From assembly GCA_964537935.1 (NCBI GenBank), contig CAZICT010000002.1, positions 12,922 to 76,921 on the forward strand: 64,000 nt of DNA, read 5' to 3'. Position 1 is the first letter of the stretch. Each line of letters opens with the position of its first letter. Made by a program: the position numbers and the translations under genes. The stretch is from an uncultured Candidatus Saccharibacteria bacterium. Lineage in GTDB: Bacteria > Patescibacteriota > Saccharimonadia > Saccharimonadales > CAZICT01. The notes beneath the pieces are model-generated. The model ran no database searches. It had not been told where the DNA came from and saw nothing but the letters and a program-made list of their open reading frames with translations. This document shows, one piece after another, positions 42,975 through 61,538 of this stretch.

Positions 42975-44015
<1,041 letters not shown>

Positions 44016-44967: not shown

Positions 44968-45080
44968 TTTCCTAAGTAAGCTATATTATAGAAATTTTAT
45001 AATGAATATGGTATAGTATAGAAACTGATATTTTAGACTCTCTTTTTATTTTAATTACCTGATAAAATAGTACTTAGCTT

Positions 45081-46028
45081 ATGAAACTCATAGTTCAAAT
45101 TCCCTGCTATAACGAAGAGCAGACATTACCAGATGTGCTTGAAACTATTCCTAAAAAAATAGAAGGAATAGATTCTATAGAGATTCTTGTTATAGACGAC
45201 GGCTCTAAGGATAGGACACTTGAAGTTGCTAAAAAACACGGCGTTAAACATTTTGTAATCCACAAACGCAATCAGGGGTTAGCAAAGAGCTTCAAGGACG
45301 GGCTTGATAAAGCGCTTAAGTTAGGTGCAGACATTATAGTCAACACCGATGGTGATAATCAGTATCCTCAGAAAGACATAGGCAAGCTAGTGCAGCCAAT
45401 TCTAGACGAAAAAGCCGACATCGTTGTAGCGGACCGCCAAACAGCCACTATTGAACATTTTTCACCTCTAAAAAAATACTTCCAAAAATTTGGTAGCAAA
45501 ATAGTAAACATGGCTGCTGGCACAGATATTCCTGATGCAGTCAGTGGCTTCCGGGCTTATTCAAAAGAAGCAGCTCTACAAATGGTTGTTATAAATTCCT
45601 TCAGCTACTGTACTGAAACTATTATCCACGCAGGAAGAAAGAAAATTGCTATAACATCCGTGCCTATCACAACAAACCCACCGACCCGCAAGTCACGTTT
45701 ATTTAAGAACATGTGGCACCACATGTACTTAAGTGCGCGCGTGATTCTAAAGAGTTACTTTATGTATCAGCCTATTAAAATGTTTTTCACACCTGCAGTC
45801 GTACTGTGTACGCTTGCTCTTGTACCATTTGTGCGTTATTTAATTCTGAGCTATGTGGAGCGCAACGCTGGATCTCACATCCAATCCCTGATAGCTGGTA
45901 CAGTGTTGTTTATTACGGGTTTTCTATTCTTGGTACTCGGTATACTCGCTGACCTCATTCGAACCAACCGCATAATAAATGAGGACTTGCTATACCGAAT
46001 TAAGAAGTCCCAATTAGATGAAAAGTAA
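45081..46028 (+). CDS. GT2 polyprenyl-phosphate glycosyltransferase (GtrB / DPM1 / ArnC-like) with C-terminal TM helices
   Basis: IPCYNEE, VIDDGSKD and TDGDNQ (DxD) motifs, followed by two C-terminal TM helices. Confidence 0.85.
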   Translation: MKLIVQIPCYNEEQTLPDVLETIPKKIEGIDSIEILVIDDGSKDRTLEVAKKHGVKHFVIHKRNQGLAKSFKDGLDKALKLGADIIVNTDGDNQYPQKDIGKLVQPILDEKADIVVADRQTATIEHFSPLKKYFQKFGSKIVNMAAGTDIPDAVSGFRAYSKEAALQMVVINSFSYCTETIIHAGRKKIAITSVPITTNPPTRKSRLFKNMWHHMYLSARVILKSYFMYQPIKMFFTPAVVLCTLALVPFVRYLILSYVERNAGSHIQSLIAGTVLFITGFLFLVLGILADLIRTNRIINEDLLYRIKKSQLDEK

Positions 46029-47293
46029 TGAAGGTCCTAATAGCCACATCGACACTTCCAGCTACTGACGAAGATAAAGTGCCCGCATTCGTCAAAGATC
46101 AAGCGATCCATATGATTAAGCGGCATCCCAATACTAAAATAATAATTCACGCACCACATAATCACTATAGCCAAACTCATACCCTCAAAAGCAAACATAA
46201 GCCTTACAAAGAGGTGAGATTTCATTACTTTTGGCCCTACAGGCTGGAGCTACTAGCAGGAAGAGGCATCATGCCTGCTCTCAAAGCCAATAAATTTCTT
46301 TATATCCAAATCCCGTTTCTTTTCATTTTTCAATTTTTTTCACTGTGGAACTTAACACGCAAAGAGAAGCCGGAGCTTTTGTATGCACATTGGTTCACCC
46401 CCCAGGCAATAAACACTGCCTTAGTATCCAAGTTGACTGGCATTCCCTTTGTGTTCACTACCCACGCATCGGATGTTTCCGTACTTAAAAAACTTCCTTT
46501 TGCATCAAGGCTTGTGCGGTGGGTGTGCAAACGGGCTCGAGCTTATACGGCAGTGTCTGAACGAACAGCCAACAAGCTGAGAGGTTTTTTTACGACAGAA
46601 GAATGGAAAGAATACTCGAAAAAACTTTCAATTATCCCAATGGGCGTAGATATTAGTCTACCCAAACTGAGCAAGCAAGAATTAAAAGATGTAAGAAAAA
46701 AATACTCATTAGATGAACGTCCAATAGTATTATTCCTTGGCAGACTGGCCGAGAAGAAGGGTGTGACGTATCTTCTTAATGCTTGGGCGACTTTGCCTGA
46801 AAAACTTCGCTCTAACCATCAGCTAGTTATAGCCGGAGACGGCCAGTTAAGGCAAGTTTTGGAAAAAGAAGCCAAAGAGCTCAATCTAAACAATGTTGTT
46901 TTTGCCGGATATATATATGGAAAAGAAAAAGACGGTCTTTTTGCGCTAGCAGATTTCTTGTGTCTACCCTCTATAATTGACAGCTCTGGAGATAGCGAAG
47001 GGTTTCCGGTGGTACTTATGGAGGGGTTAGCTGCGGGCAAAATAGTATTGGCTAGCGATGCAACAGGCGGTGAAGCTATACTGACACATCGAAAAGATGG
47101 ATTTATTTTTACACAGAAGTCAGTCAATTCACTAACGAAAATTCTAAAGGACGCTATTACCCTTACGAAGACAGAAAAAGCCGTAATACAACAAGGATCA
47201 ACAAAACTAGCAACCCAATTTGATTGGGATAAAATCGACTTAAAACATTACATCATTTTAAAGAAAGCCGCTTATGAAAATACTCATCATTAA
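46028..47293 (+). CDS. Glycosyltransferase family 4 (GT-B)
   Basis: Start overlaps the previous stop (TAATG). C-terminal E.EGFP.V.MEG.A.G..V.AS signature. Confidence 0.85.
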   Translation: MKVLIATSTLPATDEDKVPAFVKDQAIHMIKRHPNTKIIIHAPHNHYSQTHTLKSKHKPYKEVRFHYFWPYRLELLAGRGIMPALKANKFLYIQIPFLFIFQFFSLWNLTRKEKPELLYAHWFTPQAINTALVSKLTGIPFVFTTHASDVSVLKKLPFASRLVRWVCKRARAYTAVSERTANKLRGFFTTEEWKEYSKKLSIIPMGVDISLPKLSKQELKDVRKKYSLDERPIVLFLGRLAEKKGVTYLLNAWATLPEKLRSNHQLVIAGDGQLRQVLEKEAKELNLNNVVFAGYIYGKEKDGLFALADFLCLPSIIDSSGDSEGFPVVLMEGLAAGKIVLASDATGGEAILTHRKDGFIFTQKSVNSLTKILKDAITLTKTEKAVIQQGSTKLATQFDWDKIDLKHYIILKKAAYENTHH

Positions 47294-48497
47294 TAGTGAC
47301 TCGCCAAATAACCGTGGTGATCGTGCAATTCTAGCCGGTAACATTAAGTTAATTAAAGATACTTGGCCCACCGCTAAAGTGTGGGCTTTATCTGAATATG
47401 CAGAACGCGATCAGGAATGGTATGGGATTGATTTTTTACCTATGTCCACATATTCGCTCAATCCTTTCGACTTACTGAAACTAGTACGTTTCAGTAAAAA
47501 ATGCGACTACATATTCTGGGGTGGCGGAGAGCTGCTAAAAGACTACACGAATAAGATAGGCATACTGTATTGGGTATTTAAAATTACACCTGTATGGCTT
47601 GTGAATAAAAACATTTATGGAATGTTTCAGGGTATTGGACCCACTAAAGCTCATTCTAGTAAAAAGCTCATTCGGTTTTTAGTTAATCGCACCAAAACAT
47701 TCCTAGTCCGTGATAAAGGGTCAAAGGACAAGCTAGAGTCATGGGGTGCTAAGGTGCCAGTCATTAGCTCTTACGACCCTGCTGTTATATGTCAGAACCA
47801 GAATATCGATGAAGAAACCACAATATTACTTAAGTCAAGTTTTGATATAGATACCAACTTTTTGCGTAACAGCATGGGTATCGGTGTGCGTAAGTGGTTT
47901 CACTACAAGAAAAGTGGCCTCATTCCTTTTAAGTTTCGCTTCTGGGAAAAGCGAAAACGCGAAAATAATCCAAAAATTGAAGCATACATTCAGAATTTCG
48001 CCAGCCTGTGCGACTGGACAATAGAAACTCATAACCTAAATCTGGTATTTTTTCCTATGCACATGCTTCATTCGGAAAACGACATTGCCTTTTCCAAAGA
48101 AATAGTTGCACGCATGAAACATGCTAATCGAACAAGAATTATTGATAAAGACATACTGTCTCCACAAGCTTATCTCAATGTCATCGGCAAATGTAGGTTG
48201 TTTATGGGTGTGCGGCTGCATTCATCCATATTAGCTGCCGCAGCCAATGTGCCAGCACTCGTTTTTTATTATGTCGACAAAGGGCGTTTATTTTTCGAAC
48301 AATTGAAAATGCAACGCTTCAGTCAGCCCATCGAAGATTTGTTAGAGAAAGATAATCTAGAAAGCATTAAAAGCGAGATTAATCAGCTAATCAGTGAAGG
48401 AAGTGTCGTAAAAAAAGAGCTTAGCAGTAATCTTATCCGTATGAAAAAACACATCTATACTGACTTCCAATGCGTCGTGCTAGAAAAGAAAGAATAG
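47274..48497 (+). CDS. Polysaccharide pyruvyl transferase family protein (CsaB/WcaK-like)
   Basis: N-terminal NSDSPNNRGDRAILAGNI motif and the late R.HS.I.A region typical of PS_pyruv_trans. It overlaps the upstream gene by 20 nt. Confidence 0.8.
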   Translation: MKILIINSDSPNNRGDRAILAGNIKLIKDTWPTAKVWALSEYAERDQEWYGIDFLPMSTYSLNPFDLLKLVRFSKKCDYIFWGGGELLKDYTNKIGILYWVFKITPVWLVNKNIYGMFQGIGPTKAHSSKKLIRFLVNRTKTFLVRDKGSKDKLESWGAKVPVISSYDPAVICQNQNIDEETTILLKSSFDIDTNFLRNSMGIGVRKWFHYKKSGLIPFKFRFWEKRKRENNPKIEAYIQNFASLCDWTIETHNLNLVFFPMHMLHSENDIAFSKEIVARMKHANRTRIIDKDILSPQAYLNVIGKCRLFMGVRLHSSILAAAANVPALVFYYVDKGRLFFEQLKMQRFSQPIEDLLEKDNLESIKSEINQLISEGSVVKKELSSNLIRMKKHIYTDFQCVVLEKKE

Positions 48498-48609
48498 ACA
48501 TGCCAATTTTGTATCACGCTCTGTATTATTTGTTCTCGTGCTAAATCAAGTAGTAAATTCGGATGGGGTTTTCCTTTCAGCTCTTCTTTAGATAGAATCA
48601 TTTAATAAC

Positions 48610-49563
48610 ATGGCTATGAGCACAATAAAGAAACGCATGATCGGTATCATTTTCATCTTTCTGGTTCTAGTCTTCTTTGTATTATATCTCCGAGATATTG
48701 ATTACGCACAATTTGAGACACTTATTATCAATTGGCCTTTACTCCTGTGGTCTACTATTCTTTCACTTGCCTTCCGCTTCTGGGGTGTATTCATCTGGAG
48801 AACTATATTGCAAGACTTAGGTAGTAAATCGCTTCCTAGCTTCAACCTACTGAGTAAAGTCTACGCGAAAGCTTGGATGGGACGATATATTCCTGGAAGC
48901 ATTACCTGGATTGCCGGCAAGATCTACCTAGCAAGCTCTATTGGCATATCCAAAAGCCGCCTAGCAATCGCTTCGATACTAGAAGCAGTAGTACAAATTG
49001 TTGCAATTACCGTGGTTTCATTTTTTCTGGTTGGATTTGATTCTCGCACTAGCGTAATAGCCACCGAATTTAAGCTACTGCTTGTATTAGGTGCAGCTAT
49101 GCTACTCATTTCTCTTTACGCTCCAATATTTAACCGCATGGTTCGACTGGTATTTAGATTAATTAGACGCAAAAATGCTTATGAAGAGTTACAGTCCAAT
49201 AATAAAACAGTCTTACGCTCATTCCTTCTTTATGCACTTGGGTCATTCTTATCAGGCACAGCTTATTTCTTTATGACTCAGGCTATATATGGTTCAACCT
49301 CTTGGAACCTATTCTTCTATTTAGCGGGGGCATACAACCTCGCAGGTGTTATTGGTATGGCCACACCTTTTGTACCAAGTGGTTTAGGTGTGAGGGATGG
49401 AGCACAGCTACTTTTACTTAGTGTAGTATTTCCCCGTGAAATTGCTTTAGCGTTAACCGTATTTAGCCGTCTTTGGTCAGCAATAGTAGATATCTTGTTT
49501 TACCTAGTATCTCAAACTGCCTATCAATTGAACAATAACCATAATAAGAAAAGCCGCCCCTAG
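48610..49563 (+). CDS. Flippase-like membrane protein (lysylphosphatidylglycerol synthase TM region / UPF0104 family)
   Basis: 8 TM helices with GRYIPGS and PSGLGVRDG motifs characteristic of the family. Confidence 0.7.
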   Translation: MAMSTIKKRMIGIIFIFLVLVFFVLYLRDIDYAQFETLIINWPLLLWSTILSLAFRFWGVFIWRTILQDLGSKSLPSFNLLSKVYAKAWMGRYIPGSITWIAGKIYLASSIGISKSRLAIASILEAVVQIVAITVVSFFLVGFDSRTSVIATEFKLLLVLGAAMLLISLYAPIFNRMVRLVFRLIRRKNAYEELQSNNKTVLRSFLLYALGSFLSGTAYFFMTQAIYGSTSWNLFFYLAGAYNLAGVIGMATPFVPSGLGVRDGAQLLLLSVVFPREIALALTVFSRLWSAIVDILFYLVSQTAYQLNNNHNKKSRP

Positions 49564-49570
49564 CCTACAC

Positions 49571-49912
49571 TTATTTTTCTAACACAATATCGCTTACATC
49601 TTTGAAATTTTGATATCCTGCTGGCCCTGACCTGTCATAATAGACTATATCTTCAAGCAACCCATACTCCGTGTCGAAACAGCTGTTAAATATTACCCTG
49701 AAGGTATTAACAGGCGTCATAGAGTCATAAAGCTGGGTTCTATCACAATACTCCGGTAGATATATTGCTGAGTAGTTCCTGGTTCTTTCCTTGATCACTT
49801 CTGGCCTTACATCATGTAAGCCCTTCTTACCTTCAGAGCTGGAGAGCGTACCATGGTCTGATTGAATTATAATTATGGAATTCGGAAAGACTCTAGTCGT
49901 ATTTTGTATCAC
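49571..49912 (-). pseudogene. Orphan C-terminal fragment of a sulfatase / phosphoglycerol-transferase-like enzyme
   Basis: 113 aa starting at a GTG, with IIIIQSDHG (the sulfatase-family ..DHG motif that normally sits in the last third of a catalytic domain of about 400 aa). No N-terminal catalytic part is present upstream. Confidence 0.45.
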
Positions 49913-49945
49913 TTCAAATCAAGAGATTAACCCGGTGCTAACGCT

Positions 49946-51706
49946 CTATAATTTTATAATCCGGAGTGTACAAGGCATATCGGGGGCTCCACGAAAATCT
50001 TCACAAGGTAGCTCTGCTTCATAGACTCCAATAATATTGGGGTTTTCTATCCTAGTTTTATGTTGATCAGTTGGAGTATACTCGAAGAAATACTCAATAT
50101 TATTCTTTTTGTAGAGTTCAATGAAGCTGCTATCAGTGTAGTTATATCCCCTACCTGAAATTCCAAATACTTGTGACTCGAGTAAATATGCAAGGCCAAC
50201 AGTTGTCCTGTAGTTATTTGATACTATTCTACTTCCTTTTGGTATAGCCCTCTCTGCTTTTATCTCATTTGCTAGCCTATTTACAGCTGGAAGAGGCAGT
50301 CTTATGAATGGGCTTAGTGGTGTCTTTCGGTTGGGTGCACTTATGCTTAATGGATTACCTATAGGAATACTATAAGGATATTTTATCCCTTGTATATAAC
50401 TTAAATAAAATGAAAAAGGAATGAATAACACCATAGATATGAAAATAACTCGTTTTATTAGCCCTCCTGTTATCAAGTATTTCTTCCAAACATGAGGTAA
50501 TAATAAGAGAAAAACAAATAGTGAAACTGGAAGCAATGGCCAATAATACCTGGTGTTACCTCCTCCAGAGGTTGAAGAGGTTATAGCTGCATAGCCCAAG
50601 AAATATACAAAAAAAACAGTCGATGTAAGATACACATTTTTGTAGTTATCAAACTTTATTATCCCCAAAATCATAGCCAAACATGTCATAAACATTACAG
50701 GTAGCGCAAACGGAGACACAGAAAATATTCGATTTACATAAAAAGGAAATGCCTTTACTCTCTCGATTGTATAATGCTTTAAATTTGATAAAGTGAATAT
50801 TGTTTTATCTTCGCCTGCATCTTTGTTGCTAGGGGTACGATCCTCGTTATACGATACGGCATGCTCATTCGGGGGGCTAGGTAATAGTTCCTGGGATTTT
50901 TTTAATGAAGGGTCAAATCTTCCTTCAATGTTGACCGTAAAAGATGATCCCATCGTAACATTACCATACTTATTAGTAAGCATAGCTATCCAAGGTAAGG
51001 ATACCAATAAGAAGCCAGCTAATATTACTCCTAGGAATCCTATGACTTGCTTCGGAGATTCTTTATAAACTACATATCTCAATAAAACCCAACATATAAT
51101 AACTGTGAAAAATACAGGTATTAGAAATAGCTTAGTGAAATAACCCAGTGCCCCAATAGCACCTATTAAAAAACCTAGGAGTATTTTTTGGCTAATCTTT
51201 TTGAGTTTGTTTAGTAATTCATCGGCTTCAATAATAACCACCGTAAAGAGAAGTACCCATACAACAACCAATAGATCTGGTGTGTTCTCCCGAACCGCAA
51301 CCATAAGAAAAGGAACAATAGAACCCAAGAATATGAACAAAATTAAATAATTTTTACCTGCTCTTTTCCAAAGAAACCAACATCCTAGTATAACTATAAG
51401 AAAGGCAGTCAAGAAGTTTATTGCCATAAACGCCAGTTGTCCATCTAAGCCCAACACTATTAGAGGCGCCATGAGCCAACTCACCATGGGAGACCAATAG
51501 GCATTAATTGCTGTTGCGAAGTTTCCTTCTGCATATTGACGAGCAATAGACAGATAAGAGATACCGTCTATATTACTTATTATGTAGCGAGTCTGATATG
51601 CAGAAGCAAATATTAATAAGGCTGAAACAGCTATAGCTGCGTAAAAAAACAAAGGATATAACCTACGAAATTTACTTAAGTTTAATTTTTTTGGTGCTAT
51701 TTTCAT
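49946..51706 (-). CDS. GT-C fold membrane glycosyltransferase (GT39 / ArnT / PMT_2-like)
   Basis: 586 aa. After the first TM helix comes the first-loop region NIDGISYLSIARQY. About 12 TM helices are followed by a roughly 130-aa soluble C-terminal domain. Confidence 0.6.
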   Translation of the reverse strand: MKIAPKKLNLSKFRRLYPLFFYAAIAVSALLIFASAYQTRYIISNIDGISYLSIARQYAEGNFATAINAYWSPMVSWLMAPLIVLGLDGQLAFMAINFLTAFLIVILGCWFLWKRAGKNYLILFIFLGSIVPFLMVAVRENTPDLLVVVWVLLFTVVIIEADELLNKLKKISQKILLGFLIGAIGALGYFTKLFLIPVFFTVIICWVLLRYVVYKESPKQVIGFLGVILAGFLLVSLPWIAMLTNKYGNVTMGSSFTVNIEGRFDPSLKKSQELLPSPPNEHAVSYNEDRTPSNKDAGEDKTIFTLSNLKHYTIERVKAFPFYVNRIFSVSPFALPVMFMTCLAMILGIIKFDNYKNVYLTSTVFFVYFLGYAAITSSTSGGGNTRYYWPLLPVSLFVFLLLLPHVWKKYLITGGLIKRVIFISMVLFIPFSFYLSYIQGIKYPYSIPIGNPLSISAPNRKTPLSPFIRLPLPAVNRLANEIKAERAIPKGSRIVSNNYRTTVGLAYLLESQVFGISGRGYNYTDSSFIELYKKNNIEYFFEYTPTDQHKTRIENPNIIGVYEAELPCEDFRGAPDMPCTLRIIKL

Positions 51707-51724
51707 TTATTTAATTATTAATAG

Positions 51725-53212: not shown

Positions 53213-53296
53213 TCAAGCTTTATTATAGCAATAATATGCCAAGACAAGCCGTGGTGCACCAACCTCAAACCTGTTAAAGTATTGCTTGAATCAACT

Positions 53297-54640: not shown

Positions 54641-54670
54641 TAAGGTGTTAATGACCCAAACAAAAACCAT

Positions 54671-55240
54671 ATGAGCTATCCAGTAAAGAAATCATCAAAA
54701 AAGAAATTATTTATTACTCTTATAGTGATTTTGTTTATTTCTGCGGTATTTGTTGCGGGTTTTACTATTTATAAACAAAACAAATCTTCAAATAACCAAA
54801 ATACTGATGTTTCTCAAGAAACTTCTAGCAACATAAACTTTGATCCTCCTACCGAAGAAGAACAACAGTCAGGCAATATGGTTAAGGAAGAAGTTGATAC
54901 CCCTACACAATCACAAAATCAAAGTCCCCGACCAGAAAATCAAAAACAATCTGTAGATGTAGTCATAACAGATGCATCACAGTACGGAAATGATATTGAG
55001 GTACGTGCTTTTACCCCTGATATCTTGCAAGAAGGAGAGTGTGTTATAACCTTCACTAAAGGTGAGCATAGTTTACGCAAAAACGCTCCCGCCCATCCTG
55101 ATGCCACTACAACAATTTGTACCAATCCTGCGATAAATCGTGATGAATTTCCCGCTAGCGGTGAATGGACCGTTGTGGTAAGCTTTACTTCCCGAGATGC
55201 TCAAGGTAAATCTGAATCACGCACTATAAATATAGAGTAA
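54671..55240 (+). CDS. Hypothetical membrane-anchored secreted protein (189 aa)
   Basis: Basic N-terminus + TM (LFITLIVILFISAVFVAGFTIY), a Q/N/S/E-rich linker and a Cys-containing C-terminal domain. Confidence 0.55.
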   Translation: MSYPVKKSSKKKLFITLIVILFISAVFVAGFTIYKQNKSSNNQNTDVSQETSSNINFDPPTEEEQQSGNMVKEEVDTPTQSQNQSPRPENQKQSVDVVITDASQYGNDIEVRAFTPDILQEGECVITFTKGEHSLRKNAPAHPDATTTICTNPAINRDEFPASGEWTVVVSFTSRDAQGKSESRTINIE

Positions 55241-55243
55241 GTT

Positions 55244-56902
55244 ATGCAAAGAACCGTATTTTTAAAATATAAGCCAAAACTACAGCTAAAGATTGCGATT
55301 ATATTAGTATTTGTCTTAGGTTTGCTGTTTTCGATATCCCCAGCTCCGCAAAAGACAAATGCATTGAGCGGAGCGGAGTTTAATCCTGGAAGAATTATAG
55401 ATGATCTAGTGTTTTATAACTCAAACTCAATGAGCGTCAGTCAAATTCAGTCTTTTCTAAAAGCAAAAGTACCGAAATGTGATACTCATGGCACTAAAAT
55501 GTATAACGGCTCACAAACACGCGCTCAATGGGCAGCAGCTAACGGACGACCACTTCCACCGTATACCTGCCTTAAAAATTACAAACAATCTGTTCCCGCA
55601 ATTACTAACGGAGGCAGCGACCTTTGTAAGTCAAGTATTTCGGGAGGCAATAAATCTGCTGCCCAAATCATTTATGACGTCGGTAAAGCTTGTGGCATTA
55701 ATCCTCAGGTGCTAATTGTACTGCTCCAAAAAGAGCAAAGCTTGGTCACAGACGACTGGCCATGGCCAAGACAATATGAAATCGCTACCGGCTACGGCTG
55801 TCCTGACACCGCACCTTGTGATGCTGAATACTATGGATTCTTTAATCAAGTATACCAGGCAGCTAAAGCGTTTAGGCGTTATGAGGCAAACCCAGGCTGG
55901 TATAACTACAGAGCAGGAAGAAACAACACCATCCTGTGGCACCCGAATACTTCTTGTGGAACCTCCAATGTTTACATACAAAATCAAGCAACTGCAAGCT
56001 TGTATATTTATACGCCCTACAGACCAAATAATGCAGCTCTCTTCCCTAATAGTGGACCGAATGGTCTTTATGGCACCGGAGATGCCTGCAGTTCATATGG
56101 TAATCGCAATTTCTGGCGTACATTCAGAGACTGGTTCGGTTCGGTGTACTCAAATGACACTACACAAGCACACCCTGACGGTACTCTGATTACTCTGGAT
56201 AATAAAGTCTATCTCATAGAAAATGGTAAAAGACGACATATAGTTACCCCGGATGCCTTTGAGAGTTACGGCTACAAATGGAATCAGGTTAAAAAGGCTA
56301 CTATAGGTGACTGGGAGCTTCCTACAGGATCTTCTATTAAGTATCTGGCGCCTGGAACATTATTTACAACCCATAACTCCCCTGTATATGTTATGGAGTT
56401 TCATAATAATGAGATTGTTAAGCGGCATGTTTCCTATCAAGCGTTCACAAGCTTGGGCTATAAATGGAGCGATGTGCTTAATATATCTGCAAAATATGCT
56501 CCTTCGAAAACACACCCTAGCCTACTCACAAAAACTGAACACCCCTCTGGTTCCCTTGTCGTTAGTGGAGATAAGGTTTACTTGATTGAAAAAAGAAAAA
56601 TGCGTCATATTCTTACGCCACTGGCATTTGAATCGTATAATTTTGCGTGGAGCAACGTAAAACCGGCCACCCCACTTGACAGAAAACTCCCTAAAGGCGA
56701 TTCACTTAATTTCCGAGAGGGCACCCTGCTTCATTCATCGGGCAATATATACGTAATAGACTATGATGAAAGTGGAATTATGAAACGCCCCTTAGGCCCT
56801 TGGGAGTGTTTCGCTGATAGGCTAAACTTCAAGAAATCTGAGTGGATCAGCACCCCCACTAGCTCAGTTCCGAAACGTACTGGACCCCTGTTTACATGTT
56901 AG
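55244..56902 (+). CDS. Secreted protein with a Cys-rich N-terminal domain and four C-terminal repeats of about 57 aa; possible cell-wall-binding or hydrolase-like protein
   Basis: Signal/anchor region. The N-terminal domain contains SAAQIIYDVGKACGINPQVLIVLLQKEQSLV, reminiscent of muramidase/glucosaminidase-type folds. The resemblance is weak. Confidence 0.55.
   Translation: MQRTVFLKYKPKLQLKIAIILVFVLGLLFSISPAPQKTNALSGAEFNPGRIIDDLVFYNSNSMSVSQIQSFLKAKVPKCDTHGTKMYNGSQTRAQWAAANGRPLPPYTCLKNYKQSVPAITNGGSDLCKSSISGGNKSAAQIIYDVGKACGINPQVLIVLLQKEQSLVTDDWPWPRQYEIATGYGCPDTAPCDAEYYGFFNQVYQAAKAFRRYEANPGWYNYRAGRNNTILWHPNTSCGTSNVYIQNQATASLYIYTPYRPNNAALFPNSGPNGLYGTGDACSSYGNRNFWRTFRDWFGSVYSNDTTQAHPDGTLITLDNKVYLIENGKRRHIVTPDAFESYGYKWNQVKKATIGDWELPTGSSIKYLAPGTLFTTHNSPVYVMEFHNNEIVKRHVSYQAFTSLGYKWSDVLNISAKYAPSKTHPSLLTKTEHPSGSLVVSGDKVYLIEKRKMRHILTPLAFESYNFAWSNVKPATPLDRKLPKGDSLNFREGTLLHSSGNIYVIDYDESGIMKRPLGPWECFADRLNFKKSEWISTPTSSVPKRTGPLFTC
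56171..56878 (+). repeat. Protein-level (AB)2 repeat array inside the 552-aa gene
   Basis: R1 DGTLITLDNKVYLIENGKRRHIVTPDAFESYGYKWNQV resembles R3 SGSLVVSGDKVYLIEKRKMRHILTPLAFESYNFAWSNV. R2 PGTLFTTHNSPVYVMEF...VSYQAFTSLGYKWSDV resembles R4 EGTLLHSSGNIYVIDY...LGPWECFADRLNFKKSEW. Confidence 0.65.
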
Positions 56903-56938
56903 AATAGAACTTGTGGCCAATTACTAAAAAGGAAGTGG

Positions 56939-59491
56939 ATGAAAAACAAGAAGAACACACCTCTTGTGAGTGTAATAATCTTGAACTGGAACCGTATAGA
57001 TGACACTTTTGAATGTTTAAAGCATGTTGAAAACCTTACTTACCCCAATAAAGAAATAGTAGTCGTTGACAACGGGTCTACAGATGGATCAAAGCAGAGA
57101 CTCAGAAGCTTAAAGAACATAAAATTCGTTGATAATTCTGAAAATCGGGGCTTTACGGGTGGACACATTGATGGCATTGAGCACTCAAATGGCGAGTATA
57201 TTCTCCTGCTTAATAATGACGCCGCGATAAAGCCTGACTACATTGAAAAGGCATTAGAGTGTTTTGAAGATACAGAGGTGGCAGCGATAGGTGGACGAGC
57301 CTATTTTTGGAATAATAATTTTCCTGTTTTGTCTGAAAAAAACCCATATTATGCATATCAGAATATAAACTATTTAACTGGAGAGGGTATTTTTGAAAGA
57401 AAAGATAAGGGAGTAGTACAGGAAGTAAATAATGTATCAGGCTCTGGAGTAGTTATACGTCGTTCCGTTATTGACAATATAGGTTATTTATATGAGCCGT
57501 TTTTCGCATATTATGAAGAGACTGATTTGTTTGCGCGGATGAAAAGAGCGGGCTATAAAATTCTGTATAACCCAGAGCTTGCCATTTGGCATAAAGATGG
57601 ATCCAGCTCTTCTTCTTATTTTAGGTTCTATCAGCTATATAAAAACAGATTTTTATTTGCAATACGAAACTTTGAGAATAGAGTAATTCCATCTTTTTTG
57701 CTCTCATATGCAAAGACCGGCATAAAGAGCACGATCTATAGAATAAAAAGGAATGAGCATCAAACGCTACACAGAGCTTTTAGTAATGCTTTCTGGTATA
57801 ACATGTTAGCTTGGCCTCTAGCATTTAATTCAAGGAGGCAACTTAAAAGACAGCTTGGCGCTAGTAATTATAATCGTCAGATTCTGCGAGAACAAACTGA
57901 GGTGAGTTTGGTGATTGACTTTACTTCAAGCACTTCCAGTGATATCAAAAATTACTTTACTGAATGGCATAAACTTACGGGCAATGACCCTAGATATGAA
58001 CTCATTGCTGTGTGTTCAAAAGAGGCAAAAGATTTGTTGTCGAAAAATATTTCAAATATTTTTGTGGTTAAAGACAATAATTATTTTTCTAAAAAATCAT
58101 TGAATCTTGGATGGCTTTCATCAAACAGAGAATACGTTATATTCAAAGGACCCACAGAAGATATTTCTGATTTAGATCAAATTCTCGACGACGTTATCCA
58201 AATGAGATTAAACAACTACTGGGTACACTCTAGGCAACCAGCGGTAGTTACGGATGCATTAAAAGATTCGGAATTTTTATCAACAATAATTTTTGATCGC
58301 AGATTATTGACATACTCAGGTGGCTTAAAGCTTAATGCTAACGATAACTCCGAATCAATTTATCAATTAATTCTTTATGCATGGCTATGGGATAGCTCTA
58401 AGGTGTCGCTTCGCATGCATTATGGAAGCAATAAGAAATTAAATCCCACTAAGCTAGCTACCGATAAACAGCTTACATCGATTAAGAAGGATTTAATAAA
58501 GGATTCAGAAATCAATAAAAAAATTACACTATGGCAAAAATTACTTGAAAGACACTACAGGCTGTATCAAATACGAAATCTTTTTAGGTGGCTTTTAACG
58601 CCAAAGGTTACGCTACGACTTAAATTAGCCCGAACAAAAAATCTCGTATTATTTTCTGTTACCTTTAACAGAAAGGCCTTGGCTTTAGAGCTTCAACATA
58701 TTAAAAATGAATTTTTAAAATCCCGAATCCAGTGGATAGACCCAAGCCGCTTCAAACAAGAGATTGAGAAATCAACAGAAGATGCTTTGAATAATTGGGT
58801 TAATATACCCGTTTTTATAATATGCAGAGACCGATTGGATCCGCTACTCAAGCTTGTTGAGTGGCTAGAAGGCTTAGGATTTAAAAGAATTATTTTTATT
58901 GATAACGATTCTTTGTACCCTCCTTTACTTAAATATTATAAAAAAACCCCTTACCAAGTTATTTTTACTAGAAAGAATGTTGGACACACATCACCTTGGG
59001 CTTCCGGTATAATTCGAGCGTTATGTCCAGACAGTTATTATATTGTAAGTGACCCGGATGTTATACCTGTTGAATACTGTCCAGAAGATGTCATTATGCA
59101 TTTCCTCAAGATTCATAATCGTCAGCCTATGTACCAAAAGGTTGGATTCGGCTTAAAAATTGACGACATACCAGAGCACTATTCACTGAAAGAATCTGTG
59201 AAGCAGTGGGAATCACAATTCTGGCAAAAAGAGATTGAGAGGGGTATCTATGAGGCTGGTATTGATACTACTTTCGCACTGTATAAGCCATCCTTTACTC
59301 ATAAGTACACTCTTCATCCTAGTATAAGAACAGGGGAACCATATGTTGCGCGTCACCTACCTTGGTACGCAGACAGCAGTAATATATCATCAGAAGAACT
59401 ATTCTACAGGGCGCATGTTAACAACGAAATAACTTCTTGGAATGTTGATCAATTGCCCGAACGATACAAAAAAGAGCTTGGGATGAAATAA
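56939..59491 (+). CDS. Multidomain glycosyltransferase: N-terminal GT2, long helical middle region and a second GT-A-like C-terminal module
   Basis: N-terminal: VSVIILNWNR, VVDNGSTDGS, LNNDA. Middle (about aa 480-600): K/L/R-rich and helical. C-terminal: IPVFIICRDR...IFIDNDS...VSDPDV (DxD-like). Confidence 0.8.
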   Translation: MKNKKNTPLVSVIILNWNRIDDTFECLKHVENLTYPNKEIVVVDNGSTDGSKQRLRSLKNIKFVDNSENRGFTGGHIDGIEHSNGEYILLLNNDAAIKPDYIEKALECFEDTEVAAIGGRAYFWNNNFPVLSEKNPYYAYQNINYLTGEGIFERKDKGVVQEVNNVSGSGVVIRRSVIDNIGYLYEPFFAYYEETDLFARMKRAGYKILYNPELAIWHKDGSSSSSYFRFYQLYKNRFLFAIRNFENRVIPSFLLSYAKTGIKSTIYRIKRNEHQTLHRAFSNAFWYNMLAWPLAFNSRRQLKRQLGASNYNRQILREQTEVSLVIDFTSSTSSDIKNYFTEWHKLTGNDPRYELIAVCSKEAKDLLSKNISNIFVVKDNNYFSKKSLNLGWLSSNREYVIFKGPTEDISDLDQILDDVIQMRLNNYWVHSRQPAVVTDALKDSEFLSTIIFDRRLLTYSGGLKLNANDNSESIYQLILYAWLWDSSKVSLRMHYGSNKKLNPTKLATDKQLTSIKKDLIKDSEINKKITLWQKLLERHYRLYQIRNLFRWLLTPKVTLRLKLARTKNLVLFSVTFNRKALALELQHIKNEFLKSRIQWIDPSRFKQEIEKSTEDALNNWVNIPVFIICRDRLDPLLKLVEWLEGLGFKRIIFIDNDSLYPPLLKYYKKTPYQVIFTRKNVGHTSPWASGIIRALCPDSYYIVSDPDVIPVEYCPEDVIMHFLKIHNRQPMYQKVGFGLKIDDIPEHYSLKESVKQWESQFWQKEIERGIYEAGIDTTFALYKPSFTHKYTLHPSIRTGEPYVARHLPWYADSSNISSEELFYRAHVNNEITSWNVDQLPERYKKELGMK

Positions 59492-59504
59492 TTACCAATG
59501 TCGA

Positions 59505-60689
59505 CTATTCACTCCATTGATGCTCTAGTTTTGTAATTCCTCCCCATTTGTCATCCTTGGTAGACCTTATAATTAATCTTGGGCCTTTATCTATAAATTC
59601 GAAAGCTTCGTCTTCCGTATCGCCAAAAAGTCCAAAAACCAGATTATACTCCCCTTCTCCTAGATTAAGCTTGAGTTGGTATTTTACTTTTTGATTCTTA
59701 ATATGAAATTTATCAATAATAGTATTGGTTCCATACACATATTCGCCCGTACTTTTTAGCAAAGCTATCCCTATGTTCTTAATAGAGGACTCGCCCCAGC
59801 TGACTTCAACACTTACTTGCTCTCCATGCATAAATGAGTTTTTAAGCTTTCCCCTAGAATCTGCAACTCTATACTTGAATTGCCATTCTTTAATTTTTTG
59901 ATGCTTCTCCAACTTAGCATCATTGTCCTGTTGATATGCCAGGTATTTATCTTCGTTAAGGCGCGCATACTGTCTGGCAACCTGCCTAGGACTTCCTGAG
60001 GTCTGAATTTTACCCCTATCAATTAGAATGGCTTTAGTGCAATACTTTTCTACGACCGACATGTCGTGAGTGACCAAAATTATAGTTTGCTTATTTGCCT
60101 TATATTCGTCAAAAACGCTTATACACTTTTTTTGAAACGCTTGATCGCCGACAGCCAATACCTCATCAAGAAGGAGTATGTCACTTTTCGATTGAATAGC
60201 TATAGAGAATGCCAAACGAACCTGCATACCTGAAGAATAATTTTTAAGCTTTTGATCCATAAACTGGCCTAGTTCAGCAAACTCTACAATACTGTCATAC
60301 AAGCCTTCCACCTCCTTGCGGCTAAAACCAAGTAGTGCGCCGTTCAAAAATACATTTTCACGACCTGTAAGTTCTGGATTAAAACCGACACCAAGTTCGA
60401 TGAAAGGTGTTAGCGTTCCATTAATTGCTATTTTGCCCTCATTAGGCTCATAAATGCCCGCAAGCAGCTTTAGTAGTGTGCTTTTGCCACTCCCATTACG
60501 CCCAACAATACCAAAAAAGTCTCCTTTATTTATCTCGAGCGACACATCGTTTAAGACTTTCTGACGCTCATACGTCCTATTGCCACGAAACATATTTACA
60601 AAAAGACTTTTAATAGAGGTTTGTTTTTCGTGAGGAAGCTTAAACTCTTTACTTACATTTTCGACCTTAATAGCAATGTCTTCTTCCAT
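59505..60689 (-). CDS. wzt: Polysaccharide/teichoic-acid ABC exporter ATP-binding protein with a C-terminal Wzt_C-like carbohydrate-binding domain
   Basis: Walker A GRNGSGKST, signature YSSGMQVRL and Walker B ILLLDEVLAVGD, plus a roughly 140-aa beta-rich C-terminal extension. Confidence 0.85.
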   Translation of the reverse strand: MEEDIAIKVENVSKEFKLPHEKQTSIKSLFVNMFRGNRTYERQKVLNDVSLEINKGDFFGIVGRNGSGKSTLLKLLAGIYEPNEGKIAINGTLTPFIELGVGFNPELTGRENVFLNGALLGFSRKEVEGLYDSIVEFAELGQFMDQKLKNYSSGMQVRLAFSIAIQSKSDILLLDEVLAVGDQAFQKKCISVFDEYKANKQTIILVTHDMSVVEKYCTKAILIDRGKIQTSGSPRQVARQYARLNEDKYLAYQQDNDAKLEKHQKIKEWQFKYRVADSRGKLKNSFMHGEQVSVEVSWGESSIKNIGIALLKSTGEYVYGTNTIIDKFHIKNQKVKYQLKLNLGEGEYNLVFGLFGDTEDEAFEFIDKGPRLIIRSTKDDKWGGITKLEHQWSE

Positions 60690-60692
60690 ATC

Positions 60693-61496
60693 TTATAAGT
60701 TCTCCGCAAAACTGGTAGATTCTTTTCTGAAATATAAGAGTCCTGTTACAAACACTCCTAACACAATACAATAAACGCCGAATCGTATAGCTCCAGTTTC
60801 GAAGAGTCGTGATATTGTCAGTGTCTGGTTAGTTACAACCATATATCTAGCATCTTGAACCGCTTGTGCCATTGGATTTAGCAAAAGTGCTTTTTGGGCC
60901 GTCTCGTTTGCGATGACTGTTAAAGGATACAAAATAGGTGTTCCATAAAATCCTGCCTGCAAAACTACTTCCCAGATATAACTTACATCTCTATATTTGA
61001 CAAAAGCAGCCGCCAAAAAGAGCGAAATCCCGAGGGCAAATATATATATCTCTATGAGAATGAGAGGAAATAGAACTACATAGCCTGTTACATCAACTCC
61101 ATTAATAAATAGAAAAATTGTAACTACTATTAAATTAAAGCCAAGGTTGATGAGAGCCGAAATACTGCTTGAAAATACAATCATCCACCGGGGAATGCGT
61201 ATTTTGCGAATAAGATCTCCTCTGGCAACTATGGAGCTGAGACTTTGACTTGTCATGTCAGCAAAGAAATTCCAGAGAACGATCCCAAGCAATAAGTAAA
61301 TCGGAAAATGAGGAACATCCCCACCAATACGAAGAAACTTTACAAAAACTATATACAGAATAACAAACAGCAGCAATGGCCGGAGTAGTGACCAGGCATA
61401 TCCTAAAACCGAACCCTGATATCGTAATTTGAAATCAGTGCGAACAAGCTCGGACAGCAGTGCTCTATTCTTCTTAGAAAATACGTGTTTGAACAT
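60693..61496 (-). CDS. wzm: ABC-2 type polysaccharide exporter permease
   Basis: 267 aa with 6 TM helices and the N-terminal F..RY.GS.LG..W....P motif typical of Wzm/TagG. Its stop lies 4 nt upstream of the wzt start. Confidence 0.85.
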   Translation of the reverse strand: MFKHVFSKKNRALLSELVRTDFKLRYQGSVLGYAWSLLRPLLLFVILYIVFVKFLRIGGDVPHFPIYLLLGIVLWNFFADMTSQSLSSIVARGDLIRKIRIPRWMIVFSSSISALINLGFNLIVVTIFLFINGVDVTGYVVLFPLILIEIYIFALGISLFLAAAFVKYRDVSYIWEVVLQAGFYGTPILYPLTVIANETAQKALLLNPMAQAVQDARYMVVTNQTLTISRLFETGAIRFGVYCIVLGVFVTGLLYFRKESTSFAENL

Positions 61497-61513
61497 AAAT
61501 AAGCTTAGAACAC

Positions 61514-61529: not shown

Positions 61530-61538
61530 CGTAAGAAG

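Follow-up and report, generated by a model that had tools for sequence, protein, structure and literature searches.

Gene content of the locus

The window, a stretch of 64,000 nucleotides, comes from an uncultured member of the Saccharimonadales (Saccharibacteria, CPR), given that the named homologues among its best GlmS, AspRS and 850-aa glycosyltransferase (GT) matches are Candidatus Saccharibacteria or Saccharimonadales. The closest AspRS match in a search of 15 billion proteins is 78% identical. To the left of the central block of glycan genes lie a small GtrA-family membrane protein (35144–35668, reverse strand; PF04138 on an identical Logan gene; GC3 45%, core-like) and a Bac_transf phosphoglycosyl transferase of the WbaP/WsaP type (35815–37239, forward; PF02397; 46.4% GC). 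The GtrA-family protein is a candidate flippase for polyprenyl-phosphate sugars, positioned outside the block and putatively linked to it in function. The Bac_transf enzyme is likely the initiator of the glycan and a member of the conserved left flank; its gene is syntenic and 61% identical in the Saccharibacteria MAG L010. The left anchor, rmlB (dTDP-glucose 4,6-dehydratase; 43017–44015, forward; Pfam GDP_Man_Dehyd/Epimerase), is followed by rmlA (glucose-1-phosphate thymidylyltransferase; 44104–44967, forward; NTP_transferase, E = 1e-75), the last core-like gene before the block. The order from left-flank genes through rmlB and rmlA to glycan genes was found in five other loci (L091, L092, L094, L098 and L101), and neither rmlC nor rmlD was seen within 70 kb.

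The slot between rmlA and the export module (45.0–53.2 kb) holds a putative decoration cassette, and its gene content differs from the window's in every relative examined. Its first gene encodes a GT2 with a C-terminal membrane region of the GtrB or polyprenyl-phosphate sugar synthase type (45081–46028, forward; PF00535, E = 4e-26), with sub-threshold NCBIfam matches to AglJ, PpgS and PgfS; homologues in L093, L094 and L169 are 55–59% identical, and those in L166 and L170 34–36%. Then follow, on the forward strand, a GT4 (46028–47293; PF00534, E = 3e-36) for which no orthologue was found in syntenic relatives, a CsaB-like polysaccharide pyruvyl transferase (47274–48497; PF04230, E = 3e-28; TIGR03609 CsaB at E = 2e-34, under that model's cut-off) and a polytopic LPG_synthase_TM-family protein (48610–49563; PF03706, E = 2e-17), previously called flippase-like, whose 41% homologue in L169 adjoins a GT-C homologue. 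The next open reading frame (ORF), of 113 aa (49571–49912, reverse), has no direct match of its own in Pfam, NCBIfam or PDB. It aligns at 52–59% identity (E = 1e-25 to 1e-28) to residues ~410–520 of 513–532-aa proteins that carry PF00884 Sulfatase. Judged by these alignments, it is the C-terminal ~100 residues of a ~515-aa membrane-anchored sulfatase-family protein, in agreement with the sulfatase remnant of the initial annotation. We thus read the truncated gene as a scar of deletion or recombination, marking a past internal rearrangement junction. Two further reverse-strand genes had both been described as GT-C proteins. The 586-aa one (49946–51706) keeps that assignment: its AlphaFold model (pLDDT 90.3) has a GT-C fold with a small extracytoplasmic C-terminal domain, and its top Foldseek matches in PDB are PglB, ALG9 and ArnT (TM 0.53–0.58), AglB and AftA. 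It has just 47 homologues, the named ones from Microbacteriaceae and Cellulomonas. The 495-aa polytopic membrane protein (51725–53212) has no Pfam or PDB match, shows no relationship to the 586-aa family in hhalign, and is only possibly a second GT-C-like transferase; its 25–29% homologues in L169 and L170 adjoin GtrB-like GT2 genes.

The backbone and export module (53.3–62.5 kb) opens with a GT-B of the GT1/GT4 type (53282–54616, forward, with a Logan start at 53,297; weak PF13692), orthologues of which are 41–63% identical in L166 and L170–L173. The next two genes, always paired, encode a 189-aa membrane-anchored protein (54671–55240, forward) and a 552-aa exported protein (55244–56902, forward), neither with a family match. 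Orthologues of the latter (44–56%) occur in L166, L170–L173 and L010, and a 23–31% orthologue of the former precedes them in all five relatives described below and in L101, L103 and L169. The 850-aa three-domain GT (56939–59491, forward; PF00535 at residues 11–181; 36.2% GC) is the lowest-GC large gene. Its model (pLDDT 90.6) comprises three alpha/beta domains, and the closest PDB folds are the polymerases K4CP and PmHS2, which have two domains. This polymerase-like predicted fold suggests that the protein is probably the polymerase of the glycan backbone. Its full-length homologues in Saccharimonadales number over 500, so the gene cannot be called foreign to this lineage. On the reverse strand, Wzt (59505–60689) combines an ABC transporter ATPase (PF00005, E = 2e-24) with a C-terminal carbohydrate-binding domain (PF14524 Wzt_C, 36.6 bits against a cut-off of 30.4), and the ABC-2 permease Wzm (60693–61496; PF01061, E = 8e-17) is 56–72% identical in relatives. 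A GT2 adjoining Wzm (61539–62528, forward; PF00535, E = 2e-25) has orthologues in all five. Pfam thus supports the GT2, GT4, PS_pyruv_trans, LPG_synthase_TM, Wzt (ABC_tran and Wzt_C), Wzm and 850-aa GT entries of the earlier gene list.

Beyond the module, a 232-aa membrane protein (62565–63263, forward; weak Acyl_transf_3, E = 0.054; 40.6% GC) is inserted between the GT2 and Wzy_C and is specific to this genome: L166 and L172 lack it at this site, and 2.3 Mb of retrieved loci contain no homologue. The right anchor is a Wzy_C protein of the O-antigen ligase or O-oligosaccharyltransferase type (reverse strand, from 63250 to the window's end at 64000 and on to 64,536; PF04932, E = 6.5e-15), present as a complete 428-aa gene on Logan contigs L085 and L167.

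The families and folds of these proteins suggest how the locus probably works. The Bac_transf enzyme would start the glycan on polyprenyl phosphate, and the GT-B, the GT2 and the 850-aa polymerase-like GT would extend it in the cytoplasm from dTDP-sugars supplied through RmlA and RmlB. Wzm/Wzt would export the chain, whose end should be recognised by the C-terminal domain of Wzt, and the Wzy_C protein would then pass it to an acceptor; no chain terminator was identified for this pathway. The cassette would supply decorations: the GtrB-like GT2 may produce a polyprenyl-phosphate sugar that GtrA flips across the membrane for extracellular transfer by the GT-C enzyme, and perhaps also by the 495-aa protein, while the GT4 and the CsaB-like pyruvyl transferase would add further groups.

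Composition and edges of the block

The GC content is 45.7% at positions 1–44,967, 38.6% at 44,968–61,500 and 42.2% at 61,501–64,000. The drop noted in the initial annotation is therefore real but smaller than stated: instead of 48–58% GC in the flanks, median GC per 60-nt row is 45% for the flank versus 38% for the block, with widely overlapping ranges. The step proposed at about 45.0 kb was recovered, with a maximum-likelihood change point at ~44,900–44,920 (log-likelihood gain 121), giving a sharp left edge at the rmlA stop codon. Mean GC1/GC2/GC3 is 55.4/38.1/45.3% in the left-flank genes (n = 43) versus 45.8/35.3/35.3% in the block genes (n = 13), with a Mann-Whitney p of ~4e-7 for GC and likewise for GC3. 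The dinucleotide signature distances of block chunks (68–76 × 10^-3) fall outside the within-flank range (11–51). The right edge, formerly placed at 61.5 kb, is instead a ramp ending at ~63.25 kb. Core-like composition, earlier ascribed to rmlA, rmlB and the GT2 at 61,539 alike, holds for rmlB (47.0%) and rmlA (45.5%), but the GT2 is intermediate (41.9%, GC3 37.9%), as is the ORF at 62,565 (40.6%); core-like GC is regained only at Wzy_C (63,250–64,536, 45.6%) and a GT4 past the window's end (45.9%). Cassette and module are nearly equal in GC, at 38.7 and 39.2%, respectively.

The block lies between conserved anchors, namely rmlB/rmlA with the upstream genes on the left and Wzy_C with the GT4 on the right. 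As previously claimed, mobile-element marks are lacking: there is no integrase or transposase among the 59 window ORFs scanned, no tRNA was found, and flanking repeats do not exceed chance.

The module in related genomes

Module order was examined in five relatives carrying the 850-aa GT (L166, L170, L171, L172 and L173); other comparisons drew on L010, L091, L092, L093, L094, L098, L101, L103, L107, L110 and L169. All five contain a GT-B, a small protein, a ~540-aa protein, a ~840-aa GT, reverse-strand Wzt and Wzm, and a GT2, in the window's order in four; the exception is L171, whose GT-B comes after the exported-protein pair. Farther on, three have a reverse-strand Wzy_C and the GT4, L173 has the GT4 only, and L171 leads directly to sucC. 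The variable centre expected between conserved flanks is consequently confined to 45.0–53.2 kb, whereas 53.3–62.5 kb is syntenic in all five.

Composition is retained in some of these genomes. Across nine genes, GC in the window and in L166 correlates at r = 0.99: GT-B 40.3 and 40.9%, 189-aa gene 37.2 and 37.3%, 552-aa gene 42.7 and 43.2%, 850-aa GT 36.2 and 37.4%, Wzt 38.5 and 38.9%, Wzm 38.6 and 38.7%, GT2 41.9 and 41.5%, Wzy_C 45.6% in both, and GT4 45.9 and 45.6%, respectively. L166 and L170 thus show the same low-GC module and right-hand step with proteins 46–72% identical to those of the window; in L170, 32–39% GC in the module is followed by Wzy_C at 44.9% and GT4 at 47.6%. In L010, GC falls from 48–49% to 40–42% at the place matching the window. 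In L173, a module of 36–47% GC stands beside genes of 54–57%, with a 10-point step at the Wzm/GT2 junction, one gene earlier than in the window; flank values in L166, L170 and L173 describe 2–5 adjoining genes, on contigs that carry no housekeeping gene. L171 and L172 have a module that is not GC-poor, within 1–3 points of its flanks. Downstream GC is below upstream GC in nine of nine loci with the left-flank order, and in none of the seven genomes compared does module GC exceed that of the flanks. Lower-GC Saccharibacteria-like loci (36–38%) are found in L093, L107 and L110.

Expected codon-position GC was taken from regressions that Lawrence & Ochman 1997 reportedly derived. For the window module, observed GC1/GC2/GC3 departs from these expectations by -4.6/-1.2/+1.1, and for the module of L172, where module GC matches the flanks, by -3.9/-0.5/+2.0. 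The three positions move in concert and give no indication of amelioration disequilibrium, a conclusion that depends chiefly on comparing the window with L171 and L172 rather than on the Lawrence & Ochman 1997 coefficients.

Origin of the low GC content

The evidence leans, if only somewhat, towards a block that forms the centre of a composite Saccharimonadales surface-glycan locus, in which low GC is old and parts have been exchanged over deep time. Module gene order is kept across Saccharimonadales, and low GC with the same boundary recurs in two or more further lineages, so the locus has long been GC-poor and has stayed so, and its low GC is not a marker of recent serotype-like import; this argument presumes that synonymous sites are saturated at 46–72% protein identity. 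Such a state would reflect either a locus-specific compositional equilibrium or descent from a low-GC gene pool established long ago.

A recent import would have brought the whole 16.5–18 kb from a lower-GC donor by recombination through rmlA and GT2/Wzy_C, as serotype-like strain variation. The sharp step at the rmlA stop codon, the return to core values at Wzy_C and the lack of mobile-element marks agree with it. So do the equal GC of cassette and module, as if arriving together, and codon positions in equilibrium at 39% GC, also expected from a very recent donor of ~39% GC; as L173 illustrates, a much GC-richer genome can harbour a module of this kind, and lower-GC Saccharibacteria-like loci exist. 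In two runs, Logan contigs are interrupted at 44,178–44,206 and 45,013, which could mean strain variation but may reflect only k-mers common to other species in the most conserved rmlA motif. However, the orthologous low-GC modules of L166 and L170 would have to stem from independent recent imports that happened to use the same breakpoints, nothing donor-like closer than 55% to the 850-aa GT exists among 5.8 billion clusters, and with the nearest AspRS at 78% there is no close relative to display strain-level variation. We therefore regard recent import, as the initial annotation conceived it for the whole block, as unlikely.

Purely vertical descent, also improbable and ranked lower, would have the locus never exchanged, with a regional bias (weak codon selection in weakly expressed genes, AT-biased mutation and little GC-biased gene conversion) keeping it GC-poor and local gene gain, loss and decay producing the differences. 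The per-gene match to L166, the joint shift of the codon positions and the consistent direction of the contrast in all nine loci and seven genomes fit such a bias. Against it, L171 and L172 indicate that the bias is not general, the step of L173 lies at a different gene boundary, nearest neighbours vary by gene (the window GT2 is closest to L173, the 850-aa GT to L166), and L166 and L170 have one common slot version whose GT2 is 71% identical, above most of their module genes.

An assembly chimera of two organisms of unlike GC joined at the conserved rmlA is very improbable: the window does come from a metagenome assembly, and in both runs the Logan contigs stop within the conserved 5' part of rmlA, yet rmlA (from 44,178) and the block are joined on L004, L085 and L167 each carry the low-GC module and the Wzy_C and GT4 of 45–46% GC on one contig, the step lies at the stop codon away from the break, the independent assemblies L166 and L170 place such a module beside 45–48% GC genes, and five loci share the order from flank to glycan genes. 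That the block is GC-poor merely from encoding membrane proteins and GTs is scarcely credible, for although GC1 is down 10 points and these proteins are 2–3 points under the flanks even in L171 and L172, with ~2–3 of the 7 GC points attributable to protein type itself, GC3 is also down 10 points, left-flank GTs and membrane proteins have a GC3 of 45–50%, and the L172 orthologues have 45.5% versus 35.1% in the window.

Under the favoured reading of an old, composite locus, conserved anchor genes would recombine and replace parts of the locus over deep time, with the decoration cassette turning over fastest. The module/flank contrast in L173 makes such replacement by recombination plausible. The idea of a cassette exchanged horizontally through conserved flanks survives in this older form, with the anchors, the missing mobile marks, the truncated gene, the gene-by-gene neighbours and L173 in its favour. 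Low GC is not universal, as L171 and L172 demonstrate, and an import common to the members of one sub-clade is possible. The block is accordingly an ordinary case of a known pattern, half conserved and half lineage-variable, rather than proof of recent gene import.

Base composition and integrity of the block

The block at 44,968–61,500 has a GC content of 38.6%, compared with 45.7% for positions 1–44,967 and 42.2% for positions 61,501–64,000. The low-GC block described from hand counts in the initial annotation is thus real, but it had been overstated: its flanks were put at 48%–58% GC, which is too high, as the median of 60-nt rows is 45% in the left flank against 38% in the block, with a wide overlap. 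The best single GC change point lies at about 44,920 (log-likelihood gain of 121), and the best second one, at about 62,750, adds little gain. The left step coincides with the rmlA stop codon, with 500-nt windows falling from 43.6% GC (44,501–45,000) to 36.8% (44,751–45,250). The right edge is a ramp, along which the GT2 gene at 61,539 has 41.9% GC, the open reading frame (ORF) at 62,565 has 40.6%, Wzy_C 45.6%, and the next GT4 gene 45.9%; this last gene was read from Logan contigs that are base-for-base identical to the window and reach 69.5 kb. Hence the sharp GC and GC3 boundaries expected at about 45.0 and 61.5 kb are found on the left side only, whereas on the right core-like GC is reached only from Wzy_C onward.

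The mean GC1/GC2/GC3 values are 55.4/38.1/45.3% for the 43 genes of the left flank and 45.8/35.3/35.3% for the 13 genes of the block (Mann–Whitney p of about 4e-7). The dinucleotide signature delta* of the block is 68–76 × 10^-3, against a within-flank range of 11–51 × 10^-3. Tetranucleotide z-scores, proposed earlier as a further check, are not discriminating at 8 kb, as the correlations of the block (0.42–0.54) and of the flank (0.45–0.61) overlap. Protein type as the sole cause of the low GC was rejected, for it accounts for about 2–3 of the 7 GC points and not for the 10-point fall in GC3.

Exact-protein searches retrieved the same sequence only, in SRR7082966, SRR7082976, and one 206-kb NCBI contig. 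In both runs, Logan contigs stop at 44,178–44,206; one contig starts at 45,013, and a further break is found at 59669–59694. These breaks sit in the conserved 5′ part of rmlA, the rmlA–GT2 spacer, and the C-terminal domain of Wzt, respectively. A chimeric assembly join at rmlA was nevertheless rejected, because one Logan contig (L004) spans rmlA into the block, two others (L085 and L167) span the distal part of the block into genes of 45%–46% GC, the GC step lies away from the contig break, and the independent assemblies L166 and L170 have the same arrangement. The shared break points could reflect strain variants, or k-mers common to other community members. Short contigs encode variants of RmlB (P0170) and the first GT2 (P0172) at least 90% identical to those of the window.

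Among GTDB species representatives, the best matches of GlmS are Candidatus Saccharibacteria metagenome-assembled genomes, at 68% and 65%. AspRS has more than 120 homologues on a plateau at 71%–78% identity and none closer, the named ones being Candidatus Saccharimonadales or Saccharibacteria, and its 90% cluster contains this genome alone. A scan of metagenomes with rmlA gave a best identity of 84%, on contigs of 1–2 kb.

A variable cassette and a conserved module

Upstream of the block, the order LexA-like protein, GtrA, Bac_transf, GT4, GlmS, cytidylyltransferase, and PMM-like protein is kept in the related contig L010 at 46%–69% identity, and parts of it plus rmlB and rmlA (adjacent at 43,017–44,967; Pfam) are kept in L091, L092, L094, L098, and L101. 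On the right, the Pfam-assigned Wzy_C gene (63,250–64,536) and the following GT4 gene are kept in L166, L170, and L172. Five relatives (L166, L170, L171, L172, and L173) were fetched and compared over the distal part of the block. All five encode a GT-B transferase, proteins of about 190 and 540 residues, a glycosyltransferase (GT) of about 840 residues, Wzt (−), Wzm (−), and a GT2; the order differs in L171, where GT-B stands after the 190/540-aa pair and not before it. This module is followed by Wzy_C (−) and GT4 in three of the five, by GT4 only in L173, and directly by sucC in L171. The remaining positions are variable. The gap between rmlA and the module (slot 1) had five different sets of genes; the one from the large GT to Wzt holds zero to two methyltransferases, or 5.5 kb of DNA in L171; and the one from GT2 to Wzy_C is empty in L166 and L172, is occupied by a 232-aa ORF in the window, and holds an AAA_14 gene in L170. 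Given these gene orders, the block is therefore composed of a variable cassette (45.0–53.2 kb) and a conserved module (53.3–62.5 kb). The conserved flanks around a variable centre that had been anticipated are accordingly borne out for the flanks and the cassette, but the module is conserved and the relatives are distant ones. In L172 (19919–22419) and L173 (19676–22514), the locus adjoins jag-yidC-rnpA(-rpmH-dnaA), the replication-origin region.

Pfam analysis assigned the first genes of the cassette to GT2 (45,081), GT4 (46,028), polysaccharide pyruvyl transferase (47,274), and LPG_synthase_TM (48,610). The GtrB-like GT2 matches PF00535, with sub-threshold matches to AglJ, PpgS, and PgfS, and has C-terminal hydrophobic stretches in its translation. 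The 113-aa ORF that follows (49,571–49,912) gave no match in direct Pfam, NCBIfam, or PDB searches. Exhaustive HMMER searches aligned it to residues of about 410–520 of 513–532-aa Sulfatase-domain proteins at 52%–59% identity; it is thus the remaining 3′ end, one fifth in length, of a truncated gene, in agreement with the sulfatase remnant noted earlier. The 586-aa protein (49,946–51,706, −) is predicted to have a GT-C fold, as its model (pLDDT of 90.3) has PglB, ALG9, ArnT, AglB, and AftA as top PDB matches; its first loop motif has an invariant Asp47. A 495-aa protein has no Pfam or PDB match and is unrelated to the 586-aa family.

In the module, the GT-B gene (53,282) has a weak Pfam match. 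Wzt matches PF00005 with 87 bits and PF14524 (Wzt_C) with 36.6 bits (cut-off 30.4), Wzm matches PF01061 (ABC-2 permease) with 61.8 bits, and the gene at 61,539 is a GT2 by Pfam. The 850-aa GT, the lowest-GC large gene of the block, has a Pfam GT2 match within its first 230 residues and more than 500 full-length homologues at 41%–55% identity, the named ones from Saccharimonadales. Its model (pLDDT of 90.6) has three alpha/beta domains linked by long helices, with the two-domain polymerases K4CP and PmHS2 as best fold matches, suggesting a polymerase-like enzyme. The 189-aa and 552-aa genes (54,671–56,902, +) have no family match and are adjacent in all Saccharimonadales loci that were examined. 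Inspection by eye shows a Cys-rich N-terminal half in the 552-aa protein and repeats of about 70 residues at its C-terminal side. The two proteins may contribute to glycan assembly or anchoring in a way specific to this lineage.

Several smaller genes were also observed. The insertion of a gene for a 232-aa membrane protein between GT2 and Wzy_C (62,565–63,263, +) is seen in this genome only, and the sole match of the protein is a weak one to acyltransferase-3 (E = 0.054); the ORF at 27199–27897 has a comparable weak match. Between Bac_transf and GT4, a small 23S_rRNA_IVP-family gene (37281–37652, +) has a GC of 37.4% and a GC3 of 32%; no counterpart was detected in L010, where Bac_transf and GT4 stand 69 bp apart, and it resembles a small, independent low-GC insertion into an otherwise core-like left flank. 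Within the glycan locus, GlmS and the cytidylyltransferase are separated by a PIN-domain toxin gene and a small ORF upstream of it (40865–41523, +), likely a toxin–antitoxin pair; in L172, a PIN/PhdYeFM pair is found at the opposite end of the locus (19919–20559). Beyond the window, the genes that follow the right-hand GT4 (65.7–69.5 kb) differ from the origin-region genes of L172 and L173; they are a 169-aa ORF, a 175-aa ORF (35.8% GC), and a gene for a 929-aa GDSL-lipase-like protein.

Age of the low GC and signs of exchange

The low GC of the module recurs in relatives. It is 39% in the window against 46% for neighbouring non-module genes, 37%–43% against 45.6%–47.9% in L166, 32%–39% against 45%–48% in L170, 40%–42% against 48%–49% in L010, and 36%–47% against 54%–57% in L173; the ranges are closer in L171 (43%–47% against 47%) and L172 (42%–49% against 45%–49%). 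Over nine genes, the window and L166 agree in GC with r = 0.99 and a mean difference of 0.4 points, and in GC3 with r = 0.96, their proteins being 46%–72% identical. On the right, GC steps up at the GT2–Wzy_C boundary in L166, L170, and the window, and one gene earlier, at the Wzm–GT2 boundary, in L173. In all nine loci with the shared left-flank order, the downstream GC is below the upstream GC by 2 to 11 points.

To date the low GC, GC1, GC2, and GC3 were compared with the Muto–Osawa/Lawrence–Ochman regressions at each gene set's own GC. The deviation of the module from the regression is −4.6/−1.2/+1.1 in the window, and −3.9/−0.5/+2.0 in L172 and −4.2/−0.9/+3.1 in L171, where the module matches the flanks. 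This offset thus belongs to the protein types, and after allowing for it no amelioration disequilibrium by codon position was found. The GC1 of the module is 46.4 in the window versus 50.6 in L172, the first and second positions having moved along with the third; on codon composition, such a joint shift would need AT pressure that lasts over a long evolutionary time. Taken jointly with the match to L166, the codon-position result argues against one ancient, slowly ameliorating import, and also against low GC as the mark of a recent arrival. The low GC would then be either a state maintained at the level of the locus or the product of imports that recurred from a similar pool of low-GC genes. 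The GC of the cassette equals that of the module within each genome (38.7% and 39.2% in the window), which fits a regional regime and whole-block transfer alike. A proxy of GC from GARP versus FYMINK residues, applied to 120 homologues of the 850-aa GT, was discarded, as it failed to separate genes of known 37% and 45% GC. Low-GC glycan loci are usually read as recent imports. Here the low GC persists gene by gene across deep divergence, and it is therefore unusable alone as evidence of recent transfer; from these sequence comparisons, the low GC of the module appears to be old.

Pfam scans of 59 ORFs of the window revealed no integrase, recombinase, or transposase, and ARAGORN detected neither tRNA nor tmRNA genes across the 64 kb. 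No direct repeats pair the two block edges; only imperfect two-copy matches of at most 30 nt and 67%–94% identity were found. These searches agree with the earlier reading that integrase, tRNA, and flanking repeats are all missing from the window. A DDE transposase gene is present in L172 only (6723–7478, 50% GC), within the conserved module between GT-B and the 193-aa gene, so insertion sequences do enter the glycan locus in this lineage.

Signs of exchange are seen at the level of single genes. The slot-1 GT2 proteins of L166 and L170 are 71% identical, and the version in the window is 34%–36% identical to both. Identity matrices and neighbour-joining trees of six taxa give the window differing nearest neighbours: L166 for GT-B, the 850-aa GT, and Wzy_C; L170 for the 552-aa protein; L173 for GT2; and L166 and L173 almost equally for Wzm. 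For Wzt, L173 groups with the window and L166 (61%–65%) and L172 stands apart (47%–49%), whereas for the 850-aa GT L172 is at least as close as L173. Toward the comparison of inner and flanking gene phylogenies suggested at the outset, these six-taxon trees cover genes of the locus, with nearest neighbours that differ from gene to gene. A further sign is a junction at about 49.93 kb, recorded by the truncated sulfatase-family gene. These observations, with neighbour-joining trees of six taxa, and the homologues of the GT-C protein described next support mosaic evolution over long times.

The family of the 586-aa GT-C protein is rare, with 47 detectable homologues at about 32%–39% identity. The named ones are all Actinomycetota, namely Leifsonia, Glaciihabitans, Cryobacterium, and Curtobacterium (Microbacteriaceae), and Cellulomonas; the best match is in L169, a Saccharibacteria-like glycan locus of 47% GC. 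Microbacteriaceae and Cellulomonas are rhamnan-bearing Actinomycetota and plausible hosts of environmental Saccharibacteria. Given identities of 32%–39%, any transfer of this gene would be old. The GC of the module is about 33%–47% against 45%–57% for the flanks, and the module is never GC-richer than its flanks. A bolder reading holds that the module is a semi-autonomous, compositionally distinct unit moving among Saccharimonadales of very different GC, with the GT-C gene pointing to enzyme sharing between episymbiont and host; we regard it as rather improbable. If true, wall-glycan decorating enzymes would be common to episymbiont and host, perhaps as surface mimicry.

Predicted glycan pathway and comparison with known systems

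Sequence analysis revealed most parts of an ABC-transporter-dependent glycan pathway. The probable polyprenyl-phosphate initiating transferase is the Bac_transf protein at 35,815, the 850-aa GT is the predicted cytoplasmic polymerising enzyme, and export is represented by both the ABC-2 permease Wzm and the ATPase Wzt with its C-terminal carbohydrate-binding domain. The decoration genes would make up a three-component extracytoplasmic glycosylation system, with the GtrB-like GT2 as a candidate polyprenyl-phosphate-sugar synthase, the 586-aa protein as the GT-C transferase component, and a putative flippase of the GtrA family (PF04138), encoded at 35,144–35,668, 9 kb outside the block. No methyltransferase or kinase that could act as chain terminator was found in the window. 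One or two SAM-methyltransferase genes lie beside Wzt in L170 (12527–13519), L172 (12486–14311), and L173 (12526–13437); their products probably cap the chain end, for recognition by the C-terminal domain of Wzt. The pyruvyl transferase in the cassette and the lack of a methyltransferase beside Wzt suggest a different chain end in the window, for which the pyruvyl transferase is only a candidate terminating enzyme. Queries with RmlC and RmlD of the relatives gave no tblastn match in the window or its 5.5-kb extension, and the relatives carry rmlB-C-D-A or a fused rmlCD beside rmlA (L171, 987–3292; L172, 1–2294). Thus, unless rmlC and rmlD are encoded elsewhere in the genome, the sugar here may not be dTDP-L-rhamnose.

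Our literature search found no paper on a glycan island in Saccharibacteria. As in glycotype and O-antigen islands (PMC3715488, PMC7771536), a surface-glycan locus of below-genome GC occupies a fixed site, the rml genes at its edge have near-genomic GC, GC is lowest among the GT and processing genes, integrase and att sites are missing, and lineages differ in gene content. The Candidatus Actinomarinales island fGI1 lies close to the origin (PMC7771536), as the locus does in L172 and L173 by dnaA-rpmH-rnpA-yidC. Glycotype islands are GC-poor, are exchanged by double crossover, and have been called a 'universal feature' (PMC7771536); O-antigen or capsule loci such as rfb of Salmonella and E. coli are replaced by double crossover between conserved flanks, and the consistently low GC of such loci 'needs explanation' (PMC3715488). 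In contrast to these islands, variation was seen here between distant lineages only (AspRS of at most 78%), half of the block is a conserved syntenic module and not serotype-specific, and the low GC is common gene by gene to a relative at about 55%–60% protein identity.

Part for part, the closest known systems are the slg clusters for S-layer glycans in Geobacillus stearothermophilus NRS 2004/3a and Paenibacillus alvei. They too pair a WbaP-type initiator with Wzm/Wzt and have rml genes, a multi-domain GT, and a Wzy_C-domain transferase of the WsaB type, and their genes have 30%–43% GC in genomes of 45%–53% (PMC2943079). However, the present locus comes with no known S-layer gene or acceptor and lacks rmlC and rmlD within the window, the 850-aa GT is without a methyltransferase domain (the relatives have separate methyltransferases by Wzt), and a pyruvyl transferase is added together with decoration genes of the GtrB-like and GT-C types. 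The Gram-negative, ABC-transporter-dependent O-antigen pathways of E. coli O8/O9a (cited within PMC2943079) likewise combine Wzm and Wzt with a Wzt_C domain, multi-domain polymerising GTs, and a Wzy_C-family ligase. They differ in that no terminator enzyme was identified here. Saccharibacteria are not known to have an outer membrane or lipid A, and the acceptor must therefore differ as well.

The streptococcal and lactococcal rgp/gac/cwps loci for rhamnose-rich cell-wall polysaccharides (PMC9574508) resemble this locus in an ABC-transporter-dependent backbone with a conserved part. Their variable side-chain part comprises a GtrB-like GT-A, a GtrA-type flippase, a GT-C, and polyprenyl-phosphate-sugar donors, as here. 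The clusters also contain a sulfatase-family gene, of which only a remnant is found here; GacH is a sulfatase-family protein. Nevertheless, the likeness drawn here is one of gene types, the initiator here is of the Bac_transf type and not of the TagO/WecA type, and the window shows no LCP ligase.

In summary, the initial interpretation of a serotype-like, horizontally exchanged cassette is retained as regards conserved anchors, a cassette with content differing from lineage to lineage, and the lack of a mobile element; it does not extend to the half of the block that is a conserved, lineage-typical module, whose low GC appears old. As the pattern has been known for decades from O-antigen, capsule, and S-layer glycan loci, the locus is a useful annotation rather than a surprise. 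It provides a concrete map for Saccharimonadales, with an invariant backbone and export core of GT-B, the 189/552-aa pair, the putative polymerase-like 850-aa GT, Wzt/Wzm, GT2, Wzy_C, and GT4, and with the positions of the variable slots. A preprint has linked rhamnose-rich wall polysaccharides of the host to Saccharibacteria binding (PMC11623550). Surface glycans decide phage susceptibility, and in episymbiotic Saccharibacteria they probably also decide contact with the host cell.
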